A stretch of 64,000 nt of DNA, taken from positions 32,001 to 96,000 of the IMG/VR virus record IMGVR_UViG_3300037083_000054. One strand, given 5' to 3'. Positions 11,891-59,907 of the stretch are shown here, one piece after another. The notes under the pieces are model-generated. The model saw nothing but the letters and a program-made list of their open reading frames with translations, was not told the DNA's origin and made no database searches. The DNA comes from a virus. How positions within the stretch are numbered: position 1 is the first letter of the stretch; each line of letters begins with the position of its first letter. The translations under genes and the position numbers were made by a program.

Positions 11891-13852
11891 CTATCGTCGG
11901 CTTCCTGGAATATTGTCGCGACCGCCTCGAACCCGACGTTTTGGCTGATTGAACTTATTGCTCTCGATTTGAACGCTGCCTTTTGAGTGCTGATGGGCCA
12001 TGGTTGACGGCGTCAGACCTCGCGTGCTGGCTTCGGAGAAAAGCCCGTATCGCATGCAATCGACCGCGTCATCGTCAATTTTGACGGGATCAGCACGGAC
12101 GGCTGGCGAGTTCACGTTGGTTGTCAGTTGTTTGTGTCGATGGTAATTCACAAAGTTCCGGCAGAGATTCGGACACTTCTCGCGGACGACTTTCAGGCGA
12201 GATTCGACCGGGAGATCGGGAGCCAGTTGAAATGTCGGCTTCAGTAGATAGCGAACATATTCGATCCCCTCCTCGACATTGTCCTTTTTCGCAAGCTGGA
12301 GACTTGGAGCGTCGTATTCGCCATCAGGGAATTCTTCGCTGACCGTGTACTCGTTGACTTTGCCGAGCGTTCGAACCGCATCCAAATCATGGTCGCACCA
12401 TGTCACGCCGTAGTTTGGATTCCCTTCCGGCCACCAATGCATATCCGCGATTTCCTTCCAATGGTCAATCACGGTCTTCGAGGCATCGTTCGAATAGTAT
12501 TCGTCGTAGATCCACACGCGACCTCGTTGATCGAAGCAGAAGAATAAGCAGACGAAAGCGTGATCAATCGAGAATCCGAAGTCGATCGCTCGCACATGGA
12601 ATAGACCTGATGGCGGCTCCCATCCTTCCGGTGTGCAGTGAATGTTCGGGTTCCATTCGGGATAGACCGCTCCTTCGAAGTTGCCCCATAAGCCTTGTTC
12701 GCGGACAGGCTTCATTGAGTCGGGGACCATGCCGAAAAACTGGTGATACCATTGTTCTGAGATATGGCCCGCTTCCATTGCACAGCGGGTATTGCAGCGG
12801 AAGATGGCCGAGTCGGCGGGGATGTCGCCTTTTTCTTCCATTTCTCGCAATGGCATTGAAAGCGATGGGTCGACCGGCGTGAACTCGACAAGCTTGTTGC
12901 CGGTGAATGAATACTCGCGACAACCTCGCATGACTTCTTCGAGAATGCCCCACGGGAACTGTTCAACGAACAGGAAGCCGCCGATTGATTCGGCCTGCAT
13001 ACTCGCTCGGCCTTGCTCGTAAGACTTGAAGCAAAGCAGCCAGTTCTTGCCGGGTCGATTTGGCCATGACTTCAATGGAACGCTGTAGGGCCAATCCATG
13101 TTTGGCTTGTACCACTGGATACGTGGCCAGTCGATGTCGTTCGGATGGATGTGCCCTTTCTGATGAAGCTTTTCTTTCCAACATGCATTCATCACCATTG
13201 AATAGCTTTGGCTGATGAGCCAAAACGGCGTGTCTCGGCGTGGTGGTGGAGTCTTGTTGATAAACCGCATCATTTTCGCCAGACCGAGCGTCGTCGTCCC
13301 TGAATTGTGGTGATAGATGCCTTCCATCCAGTAGTTTTCATAGATCGGGACGTGAAAGTCCCAATAAACATCCCTACGAACAAAGCAATGAGCTTCGACG
13401 TAAGCGACTTTACCATCGGCCTGAATTAGTCTCACATCGCCATCCGCAACCACATCCCGCATCGTCATCCAGCCATATTCGGTGAAGACTCGATGATCGA
13501 GAGTGACGCAAAAAACATTTCCGTCTGAATCGCCAGAAAGCAGAAACTCGCAGAGATCTTCCGTTCCACAGGCATGCGGCTGTTCGGCTAATGCGATGAC
13601 GCGATTGCCAGTGAATTCGTCGATCGACCAGACGTGGAATGGGCCGGGGATCGAGTCTATGCGGCGAGAGACGTCCAGAATCGGATCATAGATTTCTTGC
13701 TCGGCAGCCGCGCATCCGTTGCCGCCAAGGCAGTACTGGATACCAGATAATTCAGACTCATAGAACGCCGTCTGCATATCATTTCGTTCAGGCTGATCAG
13801 GCCGAGGCTTGAAATGAAAGCATTCGAGTTCTTGAATTCTGGAGAGCGACAT
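11891..13852 (-). CDS. terL: terminase large subunit with intein
   Basis: Walker A GGNG|SGTT split by an intein, Walker-B-like FLFVEQ, FTP motif, nuclease RAIDFG and DDDAVDCMRY. Confidence 0.9.
   Translation of the reverse strand: MSLSRIQELECFHFKPRPDQPERNDMQTAFYESELSGIQYCLGGNGCAAAEQEIYDPILDVSRRIDSIPGPFHVWSIDEFTGNRVIALAEQPHACGTEDLCEFLLSGDSDGNVFCVTLDHRVFTEYGWMTMRDVVADGDVRLIQADGKVAYVEAHCFVRRDVYWDFHVPIYENYWMEGIYHHNSGTTTLGLAKMMRFINKTPPPRRDTPFWLISQSYSMVMNACWKEKLHQKGHIHPNDIDWPRIQWYKPNMDWPYSVPLKSWPNRPGKNWLLCFKSYEQGRASMQAESIGGFLFVEQFPWGILEEVMRGCREYSFTGNKLVEFTPVDPSLSMPLREMEEKGDIPADSAIFRCNTRCAMEAGHISEQWYHQFFGMVPDSMKPVREQGLWGNFEGAVYPEWNPNIHCTPEGWEPPSGLFHVRAIDFGFSIDHAFVCLFFCFDQRGRVWIYDEYYSNDASKTVIDHWKEIADMHWWPEGNPNYGVTWCDHDLDAVRTLGKVNEYTVSEEFPDGEYDAPSLQLAKKDNVEEGIEYVRYLLKPTFQLAPDLPVESRLKVVREKCPNLCRNFVNYHRHKQLTTNVNSPAVRADPVKIDDDAVDCMRYGLFSEASTRGLTPSTMAHQHSKGSVQIESNKFNQPKRRVRGGRDNIPGSRR
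13304..13714 (-). other. 137-aa mini-intein (Hint domain only)
   Basis: N-terminal Cys, block B TLDHRVFT, block F WDFHVP, C-terminal HN followed by Ser; no endonuclease domain. Confidence 0.9.
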
Positions 13853-13990
13853 CCGTGTCCATTCGGTGAGTTGGCGTCATTGCCACTATTTACTTTAACG
13901 ACGGCACTTCTGTTTAGCCATCACTATCAAAGCAAAAGCGACAGTAGAGGGGAATCTCTGTCGCTTTCACGGAACGGCTCAACGCCGATT

Positions 13991-14869
13991 TTATGCCTGC
14001 GGGATGTCTTCGATGATCACTCCGCTCCATCCGCATGCGACTTCCACTTCGAACTGATCGAAGACGGCGATGTTCTCGCCATCAATCTCGACACGAAGAT
14101 CATTCGCTTTGTTGATGCGAAGTGCAATCGTTGACCGCGTTGACTTATCAGTTTCTGACGGAGTTTGTCGGCAGAGAACCGCAACTGCATTCGTCGGGAA
14201 TGTAAACTCGGCCTTCATTCCAGTCAGAGGAGACTGGCTCACAGTGATCGAGTCTTCAATCACCACGGGCGAATCGTCAATCATTGTGGGGCAGTCGTAT
14301 TGCTCATCGCGTGGATAGATACCGACAGTCCACGGGCATTCGCCAATCCGCTTGGCCATTCCCGGACTCACGATCACCGTCAGGTCTGGCAATTCGATTC
14401 CAACCTTCTTTGCAACACTCTTTCGATCATGCTGCTTTGAAATCCGCGAAATCTGGCGGCGAATCTGTTCGAACAAAGTATTCGCGGGGACTTCCTCCCA
14501 TGCCGCCAATGACAGTCGAGAAATCGCGGGATCGCTTTTCAGTTTCTCAATCACGGCTGATGTTCGGACTGACATCGCGAGTTGAGCCAATGCTCGCACA
14601 CGCCTCTCGATCTCGTCGGGATCTTTCGATTTGCAGATATCGGTATGCTTCCGCAGAATTCCGCCGCTCTCGATCGGGACAATTTCCACATAACGATTCA
14701 GGGGGAAGTCTTCCGTGTTTCGACTGAAGTCTTTCAGCAGATGCTGCGTTAGTGCATCGTCTCGGAACGACACATTCGAAAGCGTGTTTGCCGTGGCATT
14801 CCGCTGGACAATCCAGCCAAGTCCAAGCCATCCAAAAACAGTCGTCAAAATTGCAGTGCGTCGGTTCAT
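13991..14869 (-). CDS. major-capsid-protein paralog with Tat-like signal peptide
   Basis: Colinear matches to ORF 58837 (DFSRN, RALAQLAM..RT, VIED, IAV.D.F.V); N-terminus MNRRTAIL + hydrophobic + ATA. Confidence 0.75.
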   Translation of the reverse strand: MNRRTAILTTVFGWLGLGWIVQRNATANTLSNVSFRDDALTQHLLKDFSRNTEDFPLNRYVEIVPIESGGILRKHTDICKSKDPDEIERRVRALAQLAMSVRTSAVIEKLKSDPAISRLSLAAWEEVPANTLFEQIRRQISRISKQHDRKSVAKKVGIELPDLTVIVSPGMAKRIGECPWTVGIYPRDEQYDCPTMIDDSPVVIEDSITVSQSPLTGMKAEFTFPTNAVAVLCRQTPSETDKSTRSTIALRINKANDLRVEIDGENIAVFDQFEVEVACGWSGVIIEDIPQA

Positions 14870-15074
14870 GTTCGATTCGCTCCATTTCGTTCAGATTCGG
14901 AAATCGCATCAATCCACTTCATATCATAATCCCATTCCTCGCACAAATAATCAACGGAATTCAAGAGAACCGGATCGAGGGTGCCGCGAGGAAGGCGGAT
15001 GATTCCGCCATGATAATCCACATGATTCTTGATCAGGATCTCAATTGCTTCGGCATCGGATTCAAAAGGCTGGC

Positions 15075-15341
15075 TCATGACTTCTCCCTGAATTCCACAA
15101 TCAAATCCTTTCCCAATCCAAACGCGATTTTCTTCAGCGTCAGCAATGTTTGCGTGTTCGACTTTGCGTCTTCCAGCGAGGAAATTGTTTGTTGACGCAC
15201 GCCACCAAGTTCCGCGAATTGCGTTTGATTCAAGCCACTGGCATCTCTCAGAGCCATGACTTGACGTGCGATATTGGCGTCGATGGCAGCGAAGAAAGCT
15301 TCGCGAGCAGTCGCTTCGGGATCTTCCATGATCACTTTCAT
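15075..15341 (-). CDS. XRE-family HTH regulator
   Basis: LRDASGLNQTQFAELGGVRQQTISSLE. Confidence 0.85.
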   Translation of the reverse strand: MKVIMEDPEATAREAFFAAIDANIARQVMALRDASGLNQTQFAELGGVRQQTISSLEDAKSNTQTLLTLKKIAFGLGKDLIVEFREKS

Positions 15342-15431
15342 TCAAAAACAGGACTGCCGATCGGGATTCCACCGATCACCAACAATTTTTGTAGCTGGCA
15401 GTCCATTTACGGCCCGGCAGTCCCGTATATG

Positions 15432-15713
15432 TCACACAATCACAATCTCTCTTGTCGGCGTCGGAAGCCCGCGAGGATCTCCATCGTCAGCCGCAAACCA
15501 TCTCAAATACCATATATTTCCGCGTCTCGATTTCCACATCTTTCCGGGATAGACGCCAGATGGTGTCGATGTGGAATACTCAGCGAGGTTTTTGAATAGT
15601 TGTTCGGTCATCATTGCACAGTTATCGTCGATAAGAACCTGTCTTGAATCCGGTTGACGCCATCCGCGTCCAAGAGGATCTGTAATGGGCGGAATAATAT
15701 TTTCGTGATTCAT
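15432..15713 (-). CDS. conserved phage hypothetical protein
   Basis: L.EYS.S.PSGVY.GKMWK motif. Confidence 0.65.
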   Translation of the reverse strand: MNHENIIPPITDPLGRGWRQPDSRQVLIDDNCAMMTEQLFKNLAEYSTSTPSGVYPGKMWKSRRGNIWYLRWFAADDGDPRGLPTPTREIVIV

Positions 15714-16062
15714 GACAACAACGCTTCCGCCAGAGGATCATTCGTCTCGTCAATCTCATTCATCACAGCCCAAGCCGATACGCCGAATGGCACTAGGATA
15801 AGGGAACTGCTCCCGAAGCAAGCTTTCGATGGTACGTATTTCGTGGCCGCGACATCATATCTTTCCAGCCTTCGCGTGGCTTTGCACGTTTAATCCCGAA
15901 TAAAAGTGCAGACGGACCCGAACGGCGAATTAAACGTGCATGCCAAAGGATCTGACAATTGGCGATTATCCGGATTATTTCATTGAAGTTTCTGAATTTG
16001 CAACAGACGTTTTCGCTGCGGCCTTCGCGGCTTTCATGGCTTTAATCTTTTCTCGATACCAG

Positions 16063-16618: not shown

Positions 16619-17125
16619 TCAGATTGATCTCTCGGTCTCAATTTTGACTGTCGACATCGTTGCCCAGACCATCAACAAGATCCATACGATGCCGGTCCAC
16701 GCCAAACAGAAGTTCAGAATCAGGATCGGAACCAGATTCCGATGTGCTCGTAAATAGGCGATTATGGACGGCAAGAAATGCAACAAGATTAAAGCAACAA
16801 TGGCAACTGATCCAAATGCCGCGAAAAACACGGCGCGAATTTTGTCGTCGGCCAATGTCTTATTGTTCGCAAAAATCCCCACGCACATTACGACAAACAA
16901 GAGTGCAGTAAGAATCGCAGAGCCAATGACGATAATTTTCCCTTGTCCGTTCTTCGTCCAATAAACTGAAGAATGATCCGATTTCTGGATGATAATTGGT
17001 TCTTCTTTGTCGGCATCACACCTTGGACACACGGTCATTTTCGATGTGTTTGCCGTTGCCGGTATTGCGTAAACTTTACCGCACGACGGACAGGTCCATT
17101 TTTGACGTGACGCACCTGAAGACAT
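16619..17125 (-). CDS. Zn-ribbon + superinfection immunity (T4 Imm-like) membrane protein
   Basis: CPSC/CPRC; C-terminal HFLPSIIAYLRAHRN..PILILNFCLAWTGIVWILLMVWA. Confidence 0.8.
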   Translation of the reverse strand: MSSGASRQKWTCPSCGKVYAIPATANTSKMTVCPRCDADKEEPIIIQKSDHSSVYWTKNGQGKIIVIGSAILTALLFVVMCVGIFANNKTLADDKIRAVFFAAFGSVAIVALILLHFLPSIIAYLRAHRNLVPILILNFCLAWTGIVWILLMVWATMSTVKIETERSI

Positions 17126-17220: not shown

Positions 17221-18438
17221 TTACTTCGCGAATGCAGGTTCGATACCTAGTTCGTAAAACTCACTGATTAGGCAGCAGATGTTATGTGCCAAAACCTTAC
17301 ACAGAACTTCGTTTTTCATGGCGATTTCGGTCTTGCTGCGAACTGAATCTCCGAACTTGCGTTTTACCATTGAGAATGTGGATTCAATGTTACTCCGCTT
17401 GTGATACGACTGAAGAAACTCCTCACGGTACAAGCTGAAGAAATGAAATGCCTTGCCAAACAATCCACCGATGCCGCCTGTAGTTCCCGAACGAAACGTG
17501 ATGTATGGCTCGGCCCCGAGAGCATTGATGGCTCGGAAGTTCGATTCGCTCGCATACTGAGTGTCGGCACTCACTTCCTTAACGTCGAAATTCTTTGCGG
17601 TTGTCTGCATGAGTGCTGGCAGAAGTGGTGAATCATTCGCGTTGCGGTCAAGGATTTCCACAGCCGTGATGACATTCGTTTTCACCCCGCACACGGCATG
17701 CAGCTTGACCCAAGTATGCTCAGTCCTGACTTTTCCATATTTATGATCGAACCATCTAATGAACTTCGACGATGTGAAACCTGATGAATCAACCGCAAAA
17801 TCGGTTTCAACGCTTTTGAGCGGCAAACTGGATGTCTGGATCAATTGAACAAGATGTTCCGTCATTTCTTCATCTTCTAGCGCAGTGCTGATCGCATTGA
17901 AATGCGGTGTTCGTTCGATATACCCCTTGTACTTCGCATCGTCCAGATCGCACATAAATCTTCTCTGGCTGACAGTGCTGTAAACCTTGAAACAGGCCAT
18001 GAATATGCAGTCAGACATGGGAATTCGTGGGCGACCGCGTCCAGGCGTCGCTAAGGGTGCCTTGACGTTGTCGCACAGCGATCGCAATAGCGACTGAAAG
18101 TGATCTTTCTCGCTCGTCTGCGCCTGATTGTATTCCGCCCACATTTGAGGATATGTCGGACGTTTGACGGTCGTAGAAATAGTCACTTCCTCAGTCGTTG
18201 TCTCAGTGCCGTCCGCGTTCTGCTCGCGTTTGATGACATATCGGACGGCGTAAATGTGCTTGCACTCTTGACCACGTTTTTCGAAGTCCGGGCAATTGCA
18301 ATAGGGCGTTTGCTCATCTGCCACGACGGTGTATTTGCCTTCGCCTGTCTGACTGGGGACGATCCACACTTGTCCTTTTTGCACAATTCGACTTCCGGCA
18401 GCGATCGTAGCACCACGTTGTTCTCTTGCTTCGCACAT
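17221..18438 (-). CDS. DDE transposase with N-terminal SWIM zinc finger
   Basis: CNCPDF..CKH; FAVDSSG, SADTQY, RSNIESTF; start set by homology to 32195. Confidence 0.9.
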   Translation of the reverse strand: MCEAREQRGATIAAGSRIVQKGQVWIVPSQTGEGKYTVVADEQTPYCNCPDFEKRGQECKHIYAVRYVIKREQNADGTETTTEEVTISTTVKRPTYPQMWAEYNQAQTSEKDHFQSLLRSLCDNVKAPLATPGRGRPRIPMSDCIFMACFKVYSTVSQRRFMCDLDDAKYKGYIERTPHFNAISTALEDEEMTEHLVQLIQTSSLPLKSVETDFAVDSSGFTSSKFIRWFDHKYGKVRTEHTWVKLHAVCGVKTNVITAVEILDRNANDSPLLPALMQTTAKNFDVKEVSADTQYASESNFRAINALGAEPYITFRSGTTGGIGGLFGKAFHFFSLYREEFLQSYHKRSNIESTFSMVKRKFGDSVRSKTEIAMKNEVLCKVLAHNICCLISEFYELGIEPAFAK

Positions 18439-18571
18439 GACTTGCCTCTTTTTCTGTTGAGGCATTCCCGATAGAATCGCAATTGCTATGTCGCGGATTG
18501 GCGGGAACGCCAGTTTGTGATTCGCCCCGGTTTCGATTCGCAGTCGATTCCGGGTTTTCCTTACGCATAGT

Positions 18572-18638
18572 ATTGTACGGACATAATTATCGGAAGTCAA
18601 TAAGAAACCATTGACAAAAATAATTTTGTCCGTACACT
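18572..18638. promoter_or_regulatory. divergent promoters with inverted-repeat operator
   Basis: TGTACGGACA / TGTCCGTACA overlapping the -10 boxes; TTGACA (+) and TTGACT-17-TACAAT (-). Confidence 0.7.
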
Positions 18639-18644
18639 TCCAGC

Positions 18645-18902
18645 ATGCACGAAAAACGACCAGGAAGACCGCCAAAGTCAGGCGTCGCATTCGGAGTTCG
18701 CATCGAGATTCGAGCGACGGACGAAGAGCGAGACCGCATCGACAAGGCGGCGAGCATTGCCGGTAAAGAGCGATCCGAGTGGATTCGTAGCACGCTGCAA
18801 TTAGCGGCGAATCAGACAATTGAAGAACATGATTCACAACCAGTGTTGAAAATGACGAAGAGATCTGTAAAATCAAAGAAGACCGGCCATGCTGGAACAT
18901 GA
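18645..18902 (+). CDS. small RHH/MobC-like regulator
   Basis: RPGRPPK then IEIRATDEERDRIDKAA...SEWIRSTL. Confidence 0.75.
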   Translation: MHEKRPGRPPKSGVAFGVRIEIRATDEERDRIDKAASIAGKERSEWIRSTLQLAANQTIEEHDSQPVLKMTKRSVKSKKTGHAGT

Positions 18903-19183
18903 CCGGCTTCGAGAGAAAAACGCCAATCTTCGGGATTGGCACCGATGGCATCCTGCCATCACCTGCTATCCGTCGAGGAACAGCCTGTCATTGCGGCAAA
19001 TTGCCGTCTTGTCAGATCGAACCAAAACGGAAGCAGGCCATGAAGCCATATGGCTTGCATGGCAGTCCTCCTGAAAACCGAGCGATTGGATTATCTTGGG
19101 TTCTAAGTCAAAGTACCCAATCCTCGGTCACTGAGGCACCACTATCCACAGTGGCCCGGATGTCGCCTCGTTTGGCATCCGGG

Positions 19184-19534: not shown

Positions 19535-19767
19535 ACAAGTCCCCGCGATTCTGTTCCAGACGTCGATAATGACAATACTTATGAATGGTATCGACCATAA
19601 CGTAAAAAGCAATAGCGCAGGGAACGACCATAATTTGGTCATGCGTCCATATTGCCTGAAAACGAAAAAGGCCCGGAGATCCGCAGATCACCGAGCCTTG
19701 ATAAGTTTGAGAAAGCCCCCGTCAGTTGATTAAAAGTGCAGAACTGCGATTATTCGTGCAAGTGCCA

Positions 19768-20316
19768 TTAAACGTGCAAAGCCACCGCACCAGTGGCAAA
19801 AGAAATCAGAGCGACTGCCCGCATGATGGGGAATCCGAGGCCCGCGACGGTGGTTTTGACTCGTGGGAATTCCAATTGGTTCTCAGCAGTATCCGGCATT
19901 GAGAGTGTCGTACCGTCAGCCAGGAACAGTTCACGGCCTCGCCAGTGCCAAGCATTGTCGGCAGTACCGTGAACGCTGCATCCGATTTCCTTCGCAAGTC
20001 GCGACATCACTTGAAGAGGGAAGCGACTGCGGGCGTCGGCATAGCTAGCGGATGACGCTGAACAGGCAGGAAGTCCATTCGCCACGCGATGAGCCAGAAT
20101 CCGGCTCACAGCTTCATTGAGCGATTTATCTTGACTGAGACACTGAGACAGCCACGCCCATAGAGTGACCAGCGGGCAAAACACTCGTTGACGATATTCG
20201 TGCCCTTCATCTTCGAGAACACCGACAACATGGTCGCGTTTGAGAAGTCGTCCAAATGGAAGCCCGTCATCATTTGCAAATGTGTCACGAACTAAGCGGA
20301 AGTCTTTTCTGCTCAT
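19768..20316 (-). pseudogene. IS4-family transposase, 3'-truncated by element A
   Basis: RQRVFCPLVTLWAWLSQ, SYADARSR, LADGTTLSMPDT, GFP; reads into the TIR and stops. Confidence 0.85.
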
Positions 20317-26215: not shown

Positions 26216-27904
26216 ATGCATGAAATGGATCTGGCCTCGAACCCGTATCTGTCTGGAATCAAAGTGCTCCAACGGAATTCCGATGGCGGAAACGATTGGG
26301 TCGCACCAAATTCGGGTCGATATCCGGTTTCGCACGTCACTACGTTTATGAATCAATACACCTCTCTCGCCCATGTTTACAGGGATTATGATGAAAGTTT
26401 GATCGATAGTCGTGAAAATGCCCGCTTCATGATGTTAAATTTGGGCATAAGGGAATGCCTCGACTCGAGGCGTCGTAGTGTCGCCCTTCTCAATTACCAC
26501 ATTGCTCCTGAAGACGACAAATCACCGCATCAAATCGAGTTTTGCCAACTCCTCGAAAAAGTCGTGAACAGGATCAAGAATTTTCAACAATATCGCGAGA
26601 GCATGCAGTTCGGAATTTGGTTCGGAAAACAAGGTTGCTGGCATCGCTTTTTGCCGCAAGTGTTTAATGGGAAAAGCATTTATGTGCCAAAAGGCCTCCA
26701 TCCAGACGACAATGGTTGGCGACCGCTTCATGGCGACAAGATTGTGTTTCGTCAATCGCGTCCTCTTATGGTCCCCGGTGCGTATGAAGGACAAATGGGG
26801 GTCCGTGTTGGATGGCTAGGCCATCAGCCTGGACAGGTTGTTAACCAACGATGGCGACTCGAAGCGACCGATTACGGTCTTGCCTATTTCCTTAATCCTG
26901 CCGAACGTCGATTGATGCTCATACATAAGCATCACCCATATGATGCCTCATTCGAAGACGGCTTACGAGCCGGGTCAATTCATGGCCTCGGAATTCGTTC
27001 GATTGTTTATTGGGAGTGGAAGCAAGCGACAGAAATTCAAGCGTTTCTTGTGGAATATCTTGAACGAATGGCGGGCGGCATTCAGATTTGGAAGTATCCA
27101 ATGGGGAATCGCCAAGCCGAAGCGAAAGCTCGGGAGGCGGCTGAGAACTATAACAGCGGACACGAACACATCATGCTTGTCCCAGTGCCCATCGGTGAAG
27201 CGGGCAATCAGTATGGTGTCGATGTCGTCGAGCCTGGATTCCAAGGCATTGAGACGATCCAGCACTTGATCAAGGATTACTTCAACGATCGCGTCAAGCG
27301 GTACATCTTGGGCCAGAAACTGAGTTCCGAAGCCGAAGCAACGGGCATGGGTTCCGGCGTCGCCGAGCTGCATATGGACACGCTGTTGCAGATCATCAAG
27401 AGCGATGCGACGGCCCATGAAGAAACGCTGACCGACGAATTGCTCGGGGCGATTATCAAGGTCAATGTCGACAAAAAGGTCTGGCATGATCCGGGATTCC
27501 GACCGCGATTCGTGTGCGAGACGGAAGAATCGGACATTGACAAGAAGTCGGAAGTCGTCTTGGCGTTCATGGGGCAGGGGATTAAGTTCCGCCTGCCTGA
27601 TATTTACGATTTGGTAGGGATGGCTCAGCCAGGACCGGACGACGAAGTCAATCCTGATGCTCCGCAGGGAGCGAAACCGGGTGAAGCGGGCTTGCCAAAA
27701 CCCGATGCGAAAACGAAAGAATCGGGTGATCCAAAGTCGCCTTCCGAGCGTTCTGAAAGCATAAAGGACGGCGAGGACTCGACCGCTCGTGACGATAATG
27801 CGGCGAATAACGGACATGCCGCGTCGCATATCCAAAGGTATAGTCGTCGGTTGCCGTTCTCCGTTCCGTCTGGTTGGAAACGACGACCGAAAACAGGGAA
27901 ATAA
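26216..27904 (+). CDS. portal protein (DUF935 / Mu gp29-like)
   Basis: GLG...YW, YILGQKLSS...GSGVAELH...IIKSDA, PRFV. Confidence 0.8.
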   Translation: MHEMDLASNPYLSGIKVLQRNSDGGNDWVAPNSGRYPVSHVTTFMNQYTSLAHVYRDYDESLIDSRENARFMMLNLGIRECLDSRRRSVALLNYHIAPEDDKSPHQIEFCQLLEKVVNRIKNFQQYRESMQFGIWFGKQGCWHRFLPQVFNGKSIYVPKGLHPDDNGWRPLHGDKIVFRQSRPLMVPGAYEGQMGVRVGWLGHQPGQVVNQRWRLEATDYGLAYFLNPAERRLMLIHKHHPYDASFEDGLRAGSIHGLGIRSIVYWEWKQATEIQAFLVEYLERMAGGIQIWKYPMGNRQAEAKAREAAENYNSGHEHIMLVPVPIGEAGNQYGVDVVEPGFQGIETIQHLIKDYFNDRVKRYILGQKLSSEAEATGMGSGVAELHMDTLLQIIKSDATAHEETLTDELLGAIIKVNVDKKVWHDPGFRPRFVCETEESDIDKKSEVVLAFMGQGIKFRLPDIYDLVGMAQPGPDDEVNPDAPQGAKPGEAGLPKPDAKTKESGDPKSPSERSESIKDGEDSTARDDNAANNGHAASHIQRYSRRLPFSVPSGWKRRPKTGK

Positions 27905-31997: not shown

Positions 31998-32008
31998 ATT
32001 ATTTACGA

Positions 32009-55611: not shown

Positions 55612-56440
55612 CATGGACGAATCATGCGAGAATGTCTCTCGTGCGGCAGGGAATTGCCAAAGCCGATTATCGCGGGAGTACCATCCGGCGTTGATTGTTG
55701 TTTTCGTTGCTGGCATCGTGTGCCGATTGCCGAGAGACTGAAAATCTCGATCGCTGTGCGTGATCGACAGTTTGGCGGTGTTCTGAGTGAATTGGCCAGC
55801 GTTGCCGGGGCTTTCCAAGAAATCCAGAAACGGGAACTCGACTCATGAATGAAACCATCGACGACGATGCCGACGAAGAAATTGACTGCTATGGCCGAGC
55901 CATCAATCAAGAGGAAGTTTCCGCACGCGACGAACGCGACCATCAGCGTTATTCGCGCCGGGACGGGAGCACCGCAGGGGCCGCGTATCCAGTGACGGTG
56001 ACTTGCGACGAAACGCCCCCGGGGAATGCACCGTAATCACTCGCCCTGTTGCGAAGTCCAGCACGTCATAAACAATCCGCGACTTCAATTGCGGACCGCC
56101 CATGAAGTCTCGCCACGGTGTTCGCGGGAGAGTCCGAATGCCGATCAATTGCACGTCGACGACTTGCCCTTGAATCTTCATGCGATATCGTTCCATGACT
56201 TTCAGATCGGATTTCGTCAGTTTTGGGTCAGATGCCATATCATTTCTTTCTCTCAATGCCTGTAAGATTGCACCACAAATTCTAGCGAGATTGTCAAAAG
56301 AAAAAACACGTCTTGCGTCGATCGTGAAAATTTCGTAAATCATTGTCTCCTGCCAACGATTGGCATGCCGAGCTTGTGAGAACAGCCCGTGACTCTCAGA
56401 AATGAGAATCAGCGGGCTGTTATTTTTTCATGGACGAGAA

Positions 56441-58264
56441 ATGTCTCCCACGATGACCGCCCCGCCGATGCCGAAACAGACGCAACCGTCTGTGATGCCA
56501 TTGCCCGGCGAGGCACAGGGAGCGTTCTTCGATCGTGCATGGGTTGCTCTCGCAAAAAAGTTTCCTAAAGCGAATCGTCGGACGGTCGCCATTATCCGAC
56601 TCTGGCAACAGTCCGAAAATGATCAGGACTTGCGGAACGAGGCGAAAGAACGTTTCTCGCCCGACAAGTACACGCAACAGGGTCCACGCTGCGTCTTCCT
56701 CTCGCACACAATCCCGGAGATTGCCGAAACGCGAGACGAGACGACCGGCGAAGTGAATCCCGGTCGTGAGGGCACGGAATACAACCGCGAGAATTTGCAG
56801 CATCTTGTTGACTTTGCAAACTATCGAATTCGCAATGCGGGCCAGTTCGCCGCTTTGAGCGACGGGCACATGCCGACCTTGGAAGAGAAATCGACCGGTC
56901 GACCGGATGCCGAGGTTTTGGGATGGGCTGGTCCGTTCTACATCGGATTGTTTGGCAACGAACATCCTCAATGGGCCATCTTCTGCGACGAGTGGATTCA
57001 TAACGAGAATCTTTCGAAAGCGGAAAAACTCCAACGACGCTCGCCGGAAGTCTGGTGCAAGGAACCGATCGAACGCCGAACGATGGACCCGATTGCCATG
57101 CTCGGCAGTGAAACGCCCCGCCTTGATAGTGGCATGAACCTTTATTCAATGCGAGCGGACGGCCAAGAGGTCATGCGATATTCGATGTCGATGGCCATGC
57201 CGAACGCCGTGAACTCGTATGTGCCTGGATCGGAAACGGGCAAGAAAACCAACTACGGAGCCAATATGAACGATCTGCAACAGCCTGTTCCCGCTGGTCC
57301 TGCTCCCGATACGAACAGTGAAACGCCCGACGAAAACAAGGCTCTGGTCGATGCGATCATTGATGCTCTCGGCGGACTCATGCCTTCGATCGTCGAAAAG
57401 GTTTCGATGGCCATGCGTCAAGGCTCGGGAAACGATCCGGATGCCGTTCCGTCCGACAATGAGAATCAAGACACCGAACCGGTTGAAGGGAAAGAAGCGG
57501 TTCCTCGTGGAATTGATTCACCCGAAGGCGACGGGATGGCGAAACAGGCTCCCGGTCAAAACGCCCCTCCGACTCCTGCACCCGCCGCGACTCCGGGTGC
57601 TCCCGCGGCGACAGGCGGACAGCCCGCGGCGGTCGCTCCCGCTCCTCCTCTCGACGACAAACATGCTCAATACGCGGCGATGTCCCCCGAATGTGGGGCG
57701 GCGTATGCGGCAGGCCATCAATCTGGATGCATGAAAGGCAGACCAATGACTTATTCCAAAGTGTCAGAAGATCCCGAATTCGTGGCCATGGCCGAAGCCC
57801 ACAAGGCCGCACTCACTCGCATTCACGACCTGGAAATGCTCCAGCGCGATAAAGAGCGATATTCGAAAGTGCATGCGATCGTGACGAATCACGTTGTGTG
57901 TGCCGAAGACGAGATCAAGGCGAAGGAAGACGAAATCCTGACGGACATTCTGCCGGTCAGCGATGCCGAATTCGATCGCTATTGCAAGGCTCTCTCGCAA
58001 GCTCCGGTTCGCGAGAAGGAAGTCACGAACTTCGAGCTTTACATTGATCCGACCGACACCCAGACCGAGAACTACTCGCGAGCCCACGGCCTGACGGTCC
58101 GGGCTTCGAAAGAGGACATTGACCGGTACACGCGGCAAGCCGCCGATATGGTCGTGACAAAACGTCGACGGGGCGAAACGACCGATATCGACACGGAAAT
58201 GAAAACGATTTTTCTGGCCAATGGTTTGCCAGATCCCACGTTGGTCGGTCCGAAAGCCGCCTAA
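56441..58264 (+). CDS. prohead protease / scaffold
   Basis: DGH..., RRSPE, IAMLGSETP protease-like N-terminal domain; Pro/Ala linker; helical C-terminus; upstream of the capsid genes. Confidence 0.7.
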   Translation: MSPTMTAPPMPKQTQPSVMPLPGEAQGAFFDRAWVALAKKFPKANRRTVAIIRLWQQSENDQDLRNEAKERFSPDKYTQQGPRCVFLSHTIPEIAETRDETTGEVNPGREGTEYNRENLQHLVDFANYRIRNAGQFAALSDGHMPTLEEKSTGRPDAEVLGWAGPFYIGLFGNEHPQWAIFCDEWIHNENLSKAEKLQRRSPEVWCKEPIERRTMDPIAMLGSETPRLDSGMNLYSMRADGQEVMRYSMSMAMPNAVNSYVPGSETGKKTNYGANMNDLQQPVPAGPAPDTNSETPDENKALVDAIIDALGGLMPSIVEKVSMAMRQGSGNDPDAVPSDNENQDTEPVEGKEAVPRGIDSPEGDGMAKQAPGQNAPPTPAPAATPGAPAATGGQPAAVAPAPPLDDKHAQYAAMSPECGAAYAAGHQSGCMKGRPMTYSKVSEDPEFVAMAEAHKAALTRIHDLEMLQRDKERYSKVHAIVTNHVVCAEDEIKAKEDEILTDILPVSDAEFDRYCKALSQAPVREKEVTNFELYIDPTDTQTENYSRAHGLTVRASKEDIDRYTRQAADMVVTKRRRGETTDIDTEMKTIFLANGLPDPTLVGPKAA

Positions 58265-58836: not shown

Positions 58837-59907
58837 ATGGCTCCCGTACTGAACAGAGTTCTGCCGAATCAGTGGAACGTGTATGTTCCGAACGCCAAGG
58901 AATCTGGCAACTTGTTTGTCGATTTCAGCCGCAACCCGGTTGACTTTAAAGTCAACCAATACTGTCAGCTTGTGCCCGTGCACCAAACGGTGGGGATTTG
59001 GTATCAGATGGGTCTCGATCAACGAGCACGCATCCTGGATACCGATGGGGCGAAGTATATGTTCCCGGACGGTGTTGACCGACCGGAAGCCCACGACCAG
59101 TCGGAATACTTTTCCGAACTGGGATTCCGCTGCCGCCGACGTTCGTACATGGACGTCATGGGCAAGATGATGAACGAACAGGCCGCATGGGATGAACGCG
59201 ACCGCCGAAGTCGCGCCCTCGCTCAACTCGCGATGACGTTCCGAACCCAACAGGTCATCACGAAACTGACCGATTCGACGCAGTATGCTTCGACGCACTA
59301 CTGGGACTTGTCGCAGACGAATCAGTTCACCAATCAGACGGGGAACTGGGCTCAATCGACGTCCGCTCGCGAAACGATCAAGAGAACCTTGAACGCCGCG
59401 AAACAGCAGATCCTGTTGGATACCCGAGCGGCGGTGAAGTCGAAAGACTTGCTGTTGATCATGGGTCCAGATACGGCGGCTCAGATCAGCGTGACGCAGG
59501 AAATCGTCGAACTTGTGAAGCAGAATGCGGGTGGAATCCAGTACCTGCAAAACAAGGGCGAGTACAAGAAGGACAACTACGGTTTGCCCGATCGGTTGTA
59601 CGACACGGAATACGTCATCGAGGACACGGTCATTGTGACTTCACAACGCGGTCTGTTGACGCAAACCGCTCAGTTCGTGCTGCCACTCGGCACCGTGCTG
59701 TTGGTGCATCGTCCGAATTCGCTGGAAGGCATTGAAGGGGGTCGAAGCTTCTCGACCGTCTCGATGCACATCTACCGAAACGACGACTTGACGCTCGAAA
59801 CCGATGCGGATAGTTGGAACCGTGTCGAACGCATCGCGGTCACCGACAACTTCGATGTCAACATGACGGCCCCTGTGACCGGCATGCTGATTGTCAATGT
59901 CTGCTAA
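58837..59907 (+). CDS. major capsid protein
   Basis: 356 aa; syntenic position; YGLP..L and VIED motifs; biased codon use. Confidence 0.8.
   Translation: MAPVLNRVLPNQWNVYVPNAKESGNLFVDFSRNPVDFKVNQYCQLVPVHQTVGIWYQMGLDQRARILDTDGAKYMFPDGVDRPEAHDQSEYFSELGFRCRRRSYMDVMGKMMNEQAAWDERDRRSRALAQLAMTFRTQQVITKLTDSTQYASTHYWDLSQTNQFTNQTGNWAQSTSARETIKRTLNAAKQQILLDTRAAVKSKDLLLIMGPDTAAQISVTQEIVELVKQNAGGIQYLQNKGEYKKDNYGLPDRLYDTEYVIEDTVIVTSQRGLLTQTAQFVLPLGTVLLVHRPNSLEGIEGGRSFSTVSMHIYRNDDLTLETDADSWNRVERIAVTDNFDVNMTAPVTGMLIVNVC

Follow-up and report, generated by a model that had tools for sequence, protein, structure and literature searches.

A trimmed HK97-fold paralogue of the major capsid protein carrying an export-type leader in a large uncultured phage from peat

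In the genome of a large, uncultured phage from peat (IMG/VR record IMGVR_UViG_3300037083_000054), a second and strongly diverged copy of the major capsid protein (MCP) gene was identified, which encodes an export-type leader followed by a trimmed HK97 fold. The whole record comprises 122,834 bp and is estimated to be 83% complete. All coordinates given here refer to the window, the stretch of 64,000 nt that was analysed (positions 32,001 to 96,000 of the record). The gene occupies 13991..14869 on the minus strand and encodes 292 aa, exactly as described in an earlier sequence-only reading of the window, and was characterised here by ORF analysis, BLASTP, AF2 modelling and Foldseek/VIA searches. 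We consider it rather probable that the paralogue is a neofunctionalised MCP duplicate which takes no part in shell building and is directed to the cytoplasmic membrane or across it. The sequence-only reading knew of no described case, and in the literature searched at the title and abstract level no description of this design was found.

Homology to the major capsid protein and the missing parts

The canonical, parent-type MCP gene of the phage is located at 58837..59907 on the plus strand and encodes 356 aa matching phrog_1005 (major head protein, E 1.3e-5). A protein of 620 aa is encoded upstream of it (56402-58264). Its AF2 model (pLDDT 79.4) matched 3bjq in Foldseek with an E of 5e-13, together with many other capsids, and its sequence was 70-81% identical to the MCPs P0006, P0007, P0009 and P0010 and 60% identical to P0005. 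The claimed colinear alignment between the paralogue and this MCP was recovered by BLASTP (76.6 bits, E 2e-20 as a single comparison, 87/334 identities, 26%, with 27% gaps). When all six frames of the 122,834-bp record were searched with the MCP, only the MCP itself and the paralogue (E 1.8e-10) were found, the latter with 33% identity over MCP residues 119-354. The aligned blocks that had been pointed out are real, and identity to the phage's own MCP peaks in the DFSRN block of the N-arm (6/12) and in the spine helix (18/28), compared with 83/264 overall. In HK97-type capsids the N-arm and the spine helix face the scaffold and the interior, and their strong conservation would also fit a protein that meets capsid-assembly partners in the cytoplasm. 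In 24 MCPs, 33 columns reach a conservation of 90% or more; the paralogue kept 18 of these, and 6 were located in its deletions. L010 and L019 were omitted from alignments A3 and A4, and L019 also from the tree, because of an unclear start or truncation, and L006 was omitted as identical to L004. The match in L008 gave no open frame at its locus, and the L008 record has one MCP match.

With the paralogue as query, phmmer found the MCP-type proteins P0003, P0004 and P0005. The second-best match, P0002, is a 1524-aa tandem-repeat protein of which 23 residues were matched; it was judged spurious and excluded from the leader count given below. Pfam, NCBIfam and PHROGs held no family for the paralogue, and a profile of the MCP family had no match among PDB sequences at E <= 1. 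In the ESM Atlas only leads below 0.9 were found for the paralogue, and these were to capsid clusters.

The AF2 model of the paralogue was confident (pLDDT 82.2, pTM 0.80, 162 residues at a pLDDT of at least 90) and matched 3bjq in Foldseek (E 5.5e-7, TM 0.6). The VIA comparison gave a Z of 17.6 and an rmsd of 3.4 A over 233 residues to 3bjq_J and a Z of 13.7 to the lambda MCP 7sj5_A, and the top named matches in BFVD were capsid proteins. The fold core is kept, including the N-arm motif, the spine helix and the P- and A-domain sheets. The paralogue is a true, very divergent MCP homologue with the HK97 fold.

MCP residues from about 60 to 117 have almost no counterpart in the paralogue in the alignments. 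The junction of the missing E-loop and the segment following it is located at codons ~72-85 (14615..14656, minus strand), as placed by the alignments and the secondary structure of both models. The spine helix of the MCP model (120-144) comes after a long hairpin formed by strands 52-58 and 92-98 with a tip of 30 residues, and that of the paralogue model (84-112) directly after a short hairpin (62-66 / 71-78). The two models identify the large missing segment as the predicted E-loop hairpin of the MCP, and the assignment to the HK97 E-loop of a gap of about 50 aa in the sequence-only reading agrees with this and with the alignments. Such an extended E-loop hairpin links neighbouring capsid subunits. 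Further deletions, absent from that reading, correspond to MCP residues 151-163, 229-243 and 326-331, the last being a conserved six-residue loop which carries the N-R-R-type motif of the family; an A-domain loop is among the missing parts. A complex prediction of paralogue residues 30-292 with the MCP scored 0.01 against a mark of 0.32 in a run that included no controls, and counts neither for nor against binding.

In sequence, fold, DFSRN motif and spine helix the paralogue thus resembles its own MCP and the lambda gpE and Bordetella BB3626 proteins (PDB 3bjq, 7sj5), but it differs from these proteins by the absence of the E-loop and the 326-331 loop, by shorter A-domain loops, by its RR/hydrophobic leader and by the location of its gene, which is separated from the head module by 44 kb. 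Some MCP paralogues have structural roles, and the protein might alternatively be a vertex or minor capsid protein, a virion subunit specialised for particular positions of the shell. The model for this would be T4 gp24, the paralogue of the MCP gp23, which is likewise a second, diverged MCP copy in the same genome and has the HK97 fold (Z 13.6 to 1yue). The proximity of the gene to the terminase and portal genes described below would suit such a role. T4 gp24 is, however, a full shell subunit encoded next to gp23 and has no export leader, and in gp24-type proteins the E-loop is retained and a hydrophobic leader is absent, whereas the paralogue is devoid of lattice-forming parts, the E-loop among them, and carries a leader. 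The match to gp24 was also no better than those to dozens of other HK97 proteins, and relatives with 70-81% identical MCPs lack the paralogue, which makes a virion subunit quite improbable.

Other capsid-type proteins with jobs beyond the parent shell are found in satellites. The cf-PICI capsid proteins (9gyi) and the satellite proteins Sid, CpmB and Ccm are, like the paralogue, diverged capsid-type or capsid-binding proteins, and 9gyi_A was among its best structural matches (Z 15.1). The cf-PICI and satellite capsid proteins work in the cytoplasm, where they assemble into shells or attach onto them, and to our knowledge none of them has a signal peptide. Encapsulins provide a further example of an HK97 fold exapted for non-viral jobs, several of them matching with a Z of about 14. 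Their likeness is structural only; the nearest sequence relatives of the paralogue are phage MCPs, and in contrast to encapsulins the paralogue lacks the E-loop and has no adjacent cargo gene that was recognised. We know of no encapsulin with a signal peptide.

The N-terminal leader

The leader was delimited by sequence and hydropathy to codons 1-27 (14789..14869, minus strand) and consists of MNRR, 18 uncharged residues (TAILTTVFGWLGLGWIVQ), R, N and A-T-A, so that the uncharged stretch following MNRR gives way to QRNATA. The core is long, uncharged and rich in glycine and threonine. The highest hydropathy of the paralogue (1.81) was found at residues 7-21, and residues 1-29 had a pLDDT below 50. 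The replaced N-terminus of the sequence-only reading stood as far as the MNRR/hydrophobic/ATA start is concerned, but the leader takes the place of only about the first 10 MCP residues, and the rest of the N-arm (NVSF..DFSRN) aligns. The ATG of the paralogue overlaps the upstream stop codon (ATGA), so the leader is translated, and a GGAG is located 10 nt upstream of this ATG. Both signals put the true start ahead of the hydrophobic segment. An in-frame GTG at codon 33, just past the hydrophobic stretch, has no SD-like motif ahead of it; judged from the sequence, it could yield a leaderless form, which counts against the preferred reading of a membrane-directed protein.

By the TATFIND-type rule, a twin arginine in a short N-region is followed by at least 13 uncharged residues, and the paralogue agrees with this rule (RR at 3-4, run of 18). 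The Tat consensus is S/T-R-R-x-F-L-K, and the corresponding motifs are N-R-R-T-A-I-L in the paralogue, N-R-R-T-F-F-G in P0003 and L-R-R-L-F-L-K in P0004. Tat signals also carry a basic C-region residue and a cleavage site of the small-x-small type, and these are present as Q-R-N-A-T-A in the paralogue, I-R-G-I-A-P-V-S-A in P0003 and A-S-K-A-K-A in P0004. The three leaders are similar to Tat signals, including the uncleaved Rieske-type anchors, in their RR within the first 4-9 residues, their long and weakly hydrophobic core, their basic residue and their A-x-A. The leader of the paralogue differs from them in being unscored by PF10518 and TIGR01409 and in having a virus capsid fold as passenger; in the literature searched at the title and abstract level, a capsid fold was not reported as a Tat substrate. 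Searched against all six frames of the record, these two curated Tat-signal HMMs had no match at E <= 10, whereas the controls were matched in 12/14 genomes; such short models are easily lost to the HMMER filters, and hmmscan of the paralogue, P0003 and P0004 likewise found no Tat family. Accordingly, the Tat-like signal proposed from the sequence was retained in its RR, uncharged core and A-x-A, but not in any match to the HMMs, and the leader might instead function through Sec or as an anchor that is not cleaved. A candidate assignment to the superinfection immunity protein family PF14373 was rejected, as its 11 bits (E 0.42) fell short of the Pfam gathering threshold of 27.9 and the match covered the hydrophobic leader only; the true PF14373 gene of the phage is located at 16619-17125.

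MCPs related to that of the phage were found in metagenome-assembled genomes (MAGs) of Planctomycetaceae and Thermoguttaceae, and the host is likely a member of the Planctomycetota. TatC was encoded in 3/3 Planctomycetota MAGs holding related MCP genes, which favours the preferred reading in that a host of this kind would be equipped for Tat export. The presence of TatC in the probable host lineages, together with an RR leader on a bulky and self-associating fold, would suit an interference with the Tat pathway, in which a folded, oligomerising capsid-fold passenger jams or occupies the translocon in the course of host takeover. No precedent was found in the literature searched at the title and abstract level, however, and the leader is missed by the Tat HMMs; we regard this as most improbable.

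Genomic context, recurrence and descent

The paralogue gene is found outside the head module, 44 kb from the MCP gene and on the opposite strand, between an HTH gene and terL; the sequence-only reading had likewise placed it next to terL and far from the capsid genes. The HTH gene (15075..15341, minus strand) encodes an XRE-type protein of 88 aa (Pfam HTH_3, E 5.9e-8; phrog_1373, E 8.5e-9) and heads a tightly coupled string of three genes consisting of the HTH gene, an ORF of 70 aa and the paralogue. The 70-aa ORF (14866..15078, minus strand), for which no family above threshold was found, overlaps the HTH stop with its ATG and the ATG of the paralogue with its TGA. On the same strand, terL (11891..13852; phrog_5653, E 1.9e-12; phrog_2, E 1.4e-7) begins 138 bp downstream of the paralogue, and the portal gene (26216-27904), on the other strand, is found at a distance of about 11 kb. 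By RNA folding, a strong stem-loop with a U-rich tail (13935..13970, minus strand) is located in the 138-nt spacer that separates the paralogue from terL; the region 13853-13995(-) folded at -50.5 kcal/mol (z -5.56), and 0/200 shuffles were as stable. A simple terminator scan did not call this stem-loop, which is a possible terminator or attenuator according to the predicted fold. Transposon cargo was rejected, as the paralogue is located outside the perfect 19-bp inverted repeats 15876-15894 / 19767-19785, which flank a transposase and an immunity gene. The record contained no match to PF00589 or PF00239 that would indicate a temperate lifestyle, a negative which is weak because the record is estimated to be 83% complete.

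A search for further MCP paralogues with signal peptides, as suggested in the sequence-only reading, found an RR leader combined with a trimmed MCP in only two further proteins, P0003 and P0004, among 1.84 billion representatives, with the leader conserved in kind. RR followed by at least 13 uncharged residues occurred in 3/25 family proteins inspected, exactly the three trimmed ones, and in 0/22 others; likewise, none of the locus-encoded MCPs examined starts with RR and an uncharged run. The RR is found at 5-6 in P0003 (uncharged run of 13) and at 8-9 in P0004 (run of 16). Beyond the RR the three leaders have little in common (8/27 and 5/27 identities), although their architecture is the same. 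MCP residues 326-331 are missing with identical borders in all three leader-bearing proteins; the tip of the E-loop and a portion of the A-domain loop are absent from all three as well. The paralogue, P0003 and P0004 are each a singleton cluster. P0003, which is encoded on an 84,410-bp contig, and P0004 had no match in IMG/VR, and family scans of metagenomes and genomes gave only ordinary MCPs.

Searches of 5.8 billion clusters and of 1.84 billion representatives yielded no orthologue of the paralogue, and the MCPs of the closest relatives (P0006 on a 118,608-bp contig, P0007 and P0010) surfaced without any paralogue match. All of the related IMG/VR records searched (7/7) hold one MCP match only, and the paralogue is therefore dispensable for this kind of phage. 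In the phylogenetic tree the paralogue is located inside a 100/100 clade with six MCPs, its placement within the clade of nine not being fixed. Its tip branch is 3.0 compared with 0.05-0.5 for the MCPs, which makes it roughly 6 to 60 times faster. The AU test rejected neither a single clade of the three leader-bearing proteins (p 0.13) nor a sister relation of the paralogue and its own MCP (p 0.24). The residues shared exclusively by the paralogue number 25 with P0003/P0004, 8 of them in the leader, and 38 with any of the six MCPs; these counts, too, favour neither line of descent.

The gene sequence was found to be identical in contigs from the peat run of another study (X2), where three pieces meet or overlap over the full gene, and in two 151-nt contigs of a third study (X3). 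Contigs from X1-X3 matching the gene at 99% or above had zero differences, and the identical sequence in assemblies of independent studies shows that the paralogue is no assembly artefact. Low-identity pieces from X1-X3 (6-7 other letters per ~38 nt) were rejected as short matches that are foreign or due to chance. Next to none of the sequence words of the paralogue occurred in two metatranscriptome runs, both from one study. Its GC content and codon use resemble those of other phage genes, and all 292 codons form an open frame although the tip branch measures 3.0 changes per site. Given the open frame and the native-like composition, the paralogue appears not to be a pseudogene. A functionless or decaying MCP copy under relaxed constraint, with a signal-like N-terminus arisen by chance, would fit the very long tip branch, the multiple deletions, the lack of orthologues in those cluster and representative sets and the related phages that do without the paralogue. 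The length of the open frame is against it, however, as are the confidently predicted fold, the 18/33 near-invariant family columns kept, the translational coupling to the upstream gene, the recurrence of leader and trimming in P0003 and P0004 and the identical sequence in the assemblies of three studies. Decay is for these reasons held to be improbable.

Possible roles of the paralogue

The sequence-only reading had put forward a putative assembly-incompetent, exported or membrane-anchored capsid mimic that might act as a decoy for capsid-sensing defences, in superinfection exclusion or as a membrane tether for head assembly. The history of the paralogue may be depicted as follows: an old and fast-evolving duplicate of a lambda-E/3bjq-like MCP with the HK97 fold was probably reused away from the shell. 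This duplicate would have lost lattice elements conserved in capsid-forming relatives (the E-loop, the A-domain loop and the six-residue loop) and gained an N-terminal signal with a twin arginine, an uncharged core, a basic residue and an A-x-A site. We infer that the leader carries the paralogue to the cytoplasmic membrane, where by the positive-inside rule the N-terminus would be cytoplasmic and the capsid-fold domain outside. The transport would probably take place in the folded state via Tat, with Sec or an uncleaved anchor as alternatives. The paralogue may then act in the envelope as a monomer or small oligomer and not as a shell subunit. Because of its rapid divergence and patchy distribution, a conflict-type job would fit, for example the blocking of superinfecting relatives. 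Counting against this reading are the lack of a match to the Tat HMMs, a motif that reads R-R-T-A-I-L and not R-R-x-F-L-K, the small number of leader-bearing proteins in this MCP family and the absence of the gene from related phages.

The domain may alternatively remain inside, the leader docking the paralogue at the membrane or at the Tat receptor while the domain binds MCP, scaffold or portal. Acting on the side of assembly, such a protein could serve as a tether or nucleation point for head assembly, much as T4 gp40 acts on the portal, set its timing, or poison the assembly of competitors, as satellite proteins do. The N-arm motif and spine helix, being the best kept parts, speak for this role, as does the position of the gene directly upstream of terL with the portal gene in the vicinity. 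From the RR-first topology, however, the domain is predicted to pass through the membrane; two elements that assembling relatives use, the E-loop and the conserved loop, have been lost, and the gene is missing from close relatives. A role in assembly, with its variants taken jointly, appears unlikely.

In a wider reading, which we regard as rather unlikely, leader-tagged capsid copies would be a widespread device, stripped of lattice loops, keeping the N-arm/spine surface and delivered to or through the Tat translocon, with P0003, P0004 and the paralogue forming one functional class. A copy in the envelope could capture binders of the capsid interior, for example pilot or ejection proteins that incoming relatives introduce, and if true this would constitute a novel form of superinfection exclusion. 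A copy docked at the translocon could instead tether assembling heads or let bound capsid protein hitchhike outward.

Few virus proteins have been studied as thoroughly as capsid proteins, and reuse of the HK97 fold inside cells is known from encapsulins, gene transfer agents and satellite capsids. A capsid fold with a bacterial export signal would place it in the envelope, where no role for it is known. For annotation, fold-based pipelines will label such genes 'major capsid protein', although the building of capsids by their products is improbable. Since phages keep such genes and the genes evolve fast, their job is likely part of a conflict between phages or between phage and host.

The phage's major capsid protein and its paralogue

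The 356 aa product of the gene at 58837-59907 is the major capsid protein (MCP) of the phage. It matched phrog_1005 'major head protein' (E 1.3e-5) and shared 70-81% identity with the metagenomic MCP-type proteins P0006, P0007, P0009 and P0010 and 60% with P0005. Its AlphaFold model (pLDDT 79.4, pTM 0.78) retrieved 3bjq as the first solved capsid in Foldseek (E 5e-13), followed by HFTV1, cyanophage A4, T5 and HK97.

The minus-strand ORF at 13991-14869 (292 aa) had been described from the sequence alone as a colinear paralogue of this MCP. The resemblance proved to be far beyond chance. BLASTP aligned the two proteins colinearly (76.6 bits, E 2e-20, 87/334 identical, 27% gaps), and a six-frame search with the MCP through the whole 122,834 bp IMG/VR record (estimated completeness 83%), of which the window covers bases 32001-96000, returned two matches only, the MCP itself and the paralogue ORF (E 1.8e-10). 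With 83/264 residues identical overall, the DFSRN block (6/12) and the spine helix (18/28) stood out as the best-conserved parts.

A structure model of the paralogue, built on a 27-row alignment, reached a pLDDT of 82.2 and a pTM of 0.80, 162 residues scoring at least 90 and values below 50 being confined to residues 1-29 and 152-158. Foldseek matched it to 3bjq (E 5.5e-7), and the VIA comparison with 3bjq_J gave a Z of 17.6 and an rmsd of 3.4 Å over 233 aligned residues, followed by a cf-PICI capsid protein (15.1), encapsulins (about 14), HK97 gp5 (13.9), lambda gpE (13.7) and T4 gp24 (13.6). The top named matches in BFVD were also capsid proteins. That the paralogue is a virion subunit in the manner of gp24 seems very unlikely to us.

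The spine helix of the MCP model (120-144) is preceded by a long hairpin, formed by strands 52-58 and 92-98 with a tip of about 30 residues, at the position of the E-loop in HK97-type proteins. The paralogue instead has a short hairpin (62-66/71-78) that runs directly into the spine helix at 84-112. By alignment it is without MCP residues 60-68, 79-117, 151-163, 229-243 and 326-331, and the first two of these gaps support the proposal that the missing part corresponds to the E-loop. Lacking this feature, the paralogue would not count, functionally, among the MCPs that form shells.

Leader and trimmed relatives

No start codon precedes the paralogue ATG at 14869 in its frame, and this ATG overlaps the TGA of a 70-codon ORF (ATGA). 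The ATG of that ORF overlaps in turn with the stop of an 88 aa HTH_3 gene (Pfam E 5.9e-8). By these overlaps the three genes are translationally coupled. GGAG is located 10 nt before the paralogue ATG. Immediately past the hydrophobic stretch, the sole candidate start is a GTG in frame at codon 33, which has no SD-like motif upstream. The N-terminus consists of MNRR, a run of 18 uncharged residues in which Gly, Thr and Trp are frequent, and then QRNATA; this stretch has the highest hydropathy of the whole protein. The leader replaces only about the first ten MCP residues, and the remaining N-arm aligns.

Four features of Tat signals recur in the leader: the twin arginine, a long core of weak hydrophobicity, a basic C-region residue and an A-x-A site. 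The curated Tat-signal models PF10518 and TIGR01409 found nothing in the record up to E = 10, the same searches being positive in 12 of 14 control genomes, and hmmscan returned no Tat family. Of the 'Tat-like export signal' of the sequence-only reading, the likeness in features therefore stands and membership of the curated Tat signals does not; judged by its residues, 'Tat-like' is a reading of the leader. The leader would fit a Sec signal, or an N-in/C-out anchor that is not cleaved, equally well. To jamming of Tat by the paralogue we give hardly any credence. An RR-type leader was also seen in a second phage protein, a 592 aa ORF (L030:753-2531, or G000:C1:115753-117531 of the whole record, outside the window) without a Pfam family, which begins with MKNRR and a 21-residue uncharged run.

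Among 5.8 billion protein clusters, a word-indexed search with the paralogue recovered only the paralogue itself (1 of 1181 candidates). Five matches were obtained by phmmer against 1.84 billion representatives (E ≤ 0.001): the paralogue, a 1524 aa repeat protein that was set aside as only 23 residues match, P0003 (327 aa), P0004 (329 aa) and P0005 (358 aa), an ordinary MCP. The MCP-like proteins P0003 (NRRTFFG, 13 uncharged residues) and P0004 (LRRLFLK, 16 uncharged residues) have leaders of the same build, in which a basic residue and a small-x-small site follow. The E-loop tip (approximately MCP 63-94) is missing from both proteins, as is some of the A-domain loop, and the exact absence of MCP 326-331 is common to them and the paralogue. 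An RR with a hydrophobic run was present in 3 of the 25 family proteins scored, exactly the trimmed ones, the other 22 having neither. New matches to a three-protein profile and to P0003 (10 and 17 proteins) were all ordinary MCPs. The MCP-type ORFs at IMG/VR, GTDB-genome and metagenome loci all had ordinary MCP starts, in a survey that left out loci L008 (match not placed) and L019 (cut by a contig end). The three trimmed proteins are each a singleton cluster, and a second MCP match was absent from all seven related IMG/VR records searched, each having a single one. A C-terminal NVC, with a final Cys, is common to all MCPs of the closest clade and to P0003 and P0004; the paralogue has lost this ending.

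A maximum likelihood tree of 28 rows grouped the three leader-bearing proteins with the MCP of the window and P0005-P0007, P0009 and P0010 in a 100/100 clade, in which P0003 and P0004 paired at 84/86. Neither of two placements, the three as one clade (p 0.13) or the paralogue as sister to its own MCP (p 0.24), was rejected by AU tests, and counts of exclusive residues favoured neither of them. The shared leader, the loss of the E-loop tip and the identical six-residue deletion suggest that a single origin of the three is likely. The tip branch of the paralogue is long, at 3.0 changes per column, compared with 0.9 for P0003 and P0004 and 0.05-0.5 for the MCPs. Despite this divergence its frame is open, its fold is predicted with confidence, 18 of the 33 near-invariant family columns are kept, and base composition and codon use are native-like, all of which argues against neutral decay; a decaying copy seems quite improbable.

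Genomic setting and host

The terL gene (phrog_5653, E 1.9e-12) lies 138 bp downstream of the paralogue. The 138 nt spacer (13853-13990) holds a strong stem-loop with a U-rich tail (MFE -50.5 kcal/mol, z -5.56, 0/200 shuffles as stable), which may be a terminator, an attenuator or a regulatory leader of terL. Just upstream of the string of HTH gene, 70-codon ORF and paralogue is a 93 aa gene of unknown function (15432-15713), whose match to phrog_24427 (E 5.5e-29) is the strongest family match in the neighbourhood. A 3.9 kb transposon with perfect 19 bp inverted repeats (15876-15894/19767-19785) is also located upstream of the HTH gene. It contains a superinfection-immunity gene (16619-17125; PF14373, E 4e-14), a SWIM-DDE transposase (17221-18951) and two small ORFs; the paralogue lies outside the repeats. 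The portal gene (phrog_113, E 2e-20) is at 26216-27904 on the plus strand. Searches of the record, at its estimated completeness, for integrase and resolvase families gave no match. The arms of a 39 nt inverted repeat pair (16547-16585/24002-24040), 85% complementary and 7.4 kb apart, each form a hairpin. Outside the window, the same 27 bp tandem repeat is present at both ends of the record (G000:C1:1-130 and 122660-122834), and the opening 20-100 bases of the record are found again close to its far end; the assembly may thus close on itself within a repeat array and not be a fragment.

Related MCP genes were found in three MAGs, one of Planctomycetaceae and two of Thermoguttaceae. All three encode TatC, and the likely host phylum accordingly has the Tat pathway. 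Window positions 13000-16000 recurred with zero differences in contigs of a second peat-metagenome study and as short identical pieces in a third, and one identical 250 nt piece (15526-15775) was found in a lake-water run.

Proposed role of the paralogue

Beyond the homology, fold, deletions, leader and coupling, which were shown, as was the recurrence of the design, we infer export, a topology, a loss of assembly and a job. We favour, with modest confidence, a neofunctionalised MCP duplicate that would no longer build shells and whose leader would direct it to the cytoplasmic membrane. With the RR end remaining in the cytoplasm, the capsid-fold domain would cross the membrane, folded via Tat, via Sec, or held as an anchor, and the envelope would be its place of action. 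Its fast evolution and scattered occurrence suggest a role in conflict, with superinfection exclusion as our first guess. In HK97-type shells the surface of N-arm and spine helix faces the capsid interior; the paralogue has kept it, and may therefore still bind the proteins that normally meet it. Such a surface would also be at hand for a role in assembly at the cytoplasmic face, which we regard as unlikely.

The neofunctionalised duplicate would work like an exapted capsid fold. The sequence-only reading knew of no described case, and full-text literature searches listed no report in which a phage capsid paralogue carries a signal peptide, of Tat type or other; within that coverage, a leader-bearing capsid paralogue appears undescribed in print. 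The paralogue would represent a leader-bearing capsid copy in a new MCP family, and probably in a new host phylum as well.
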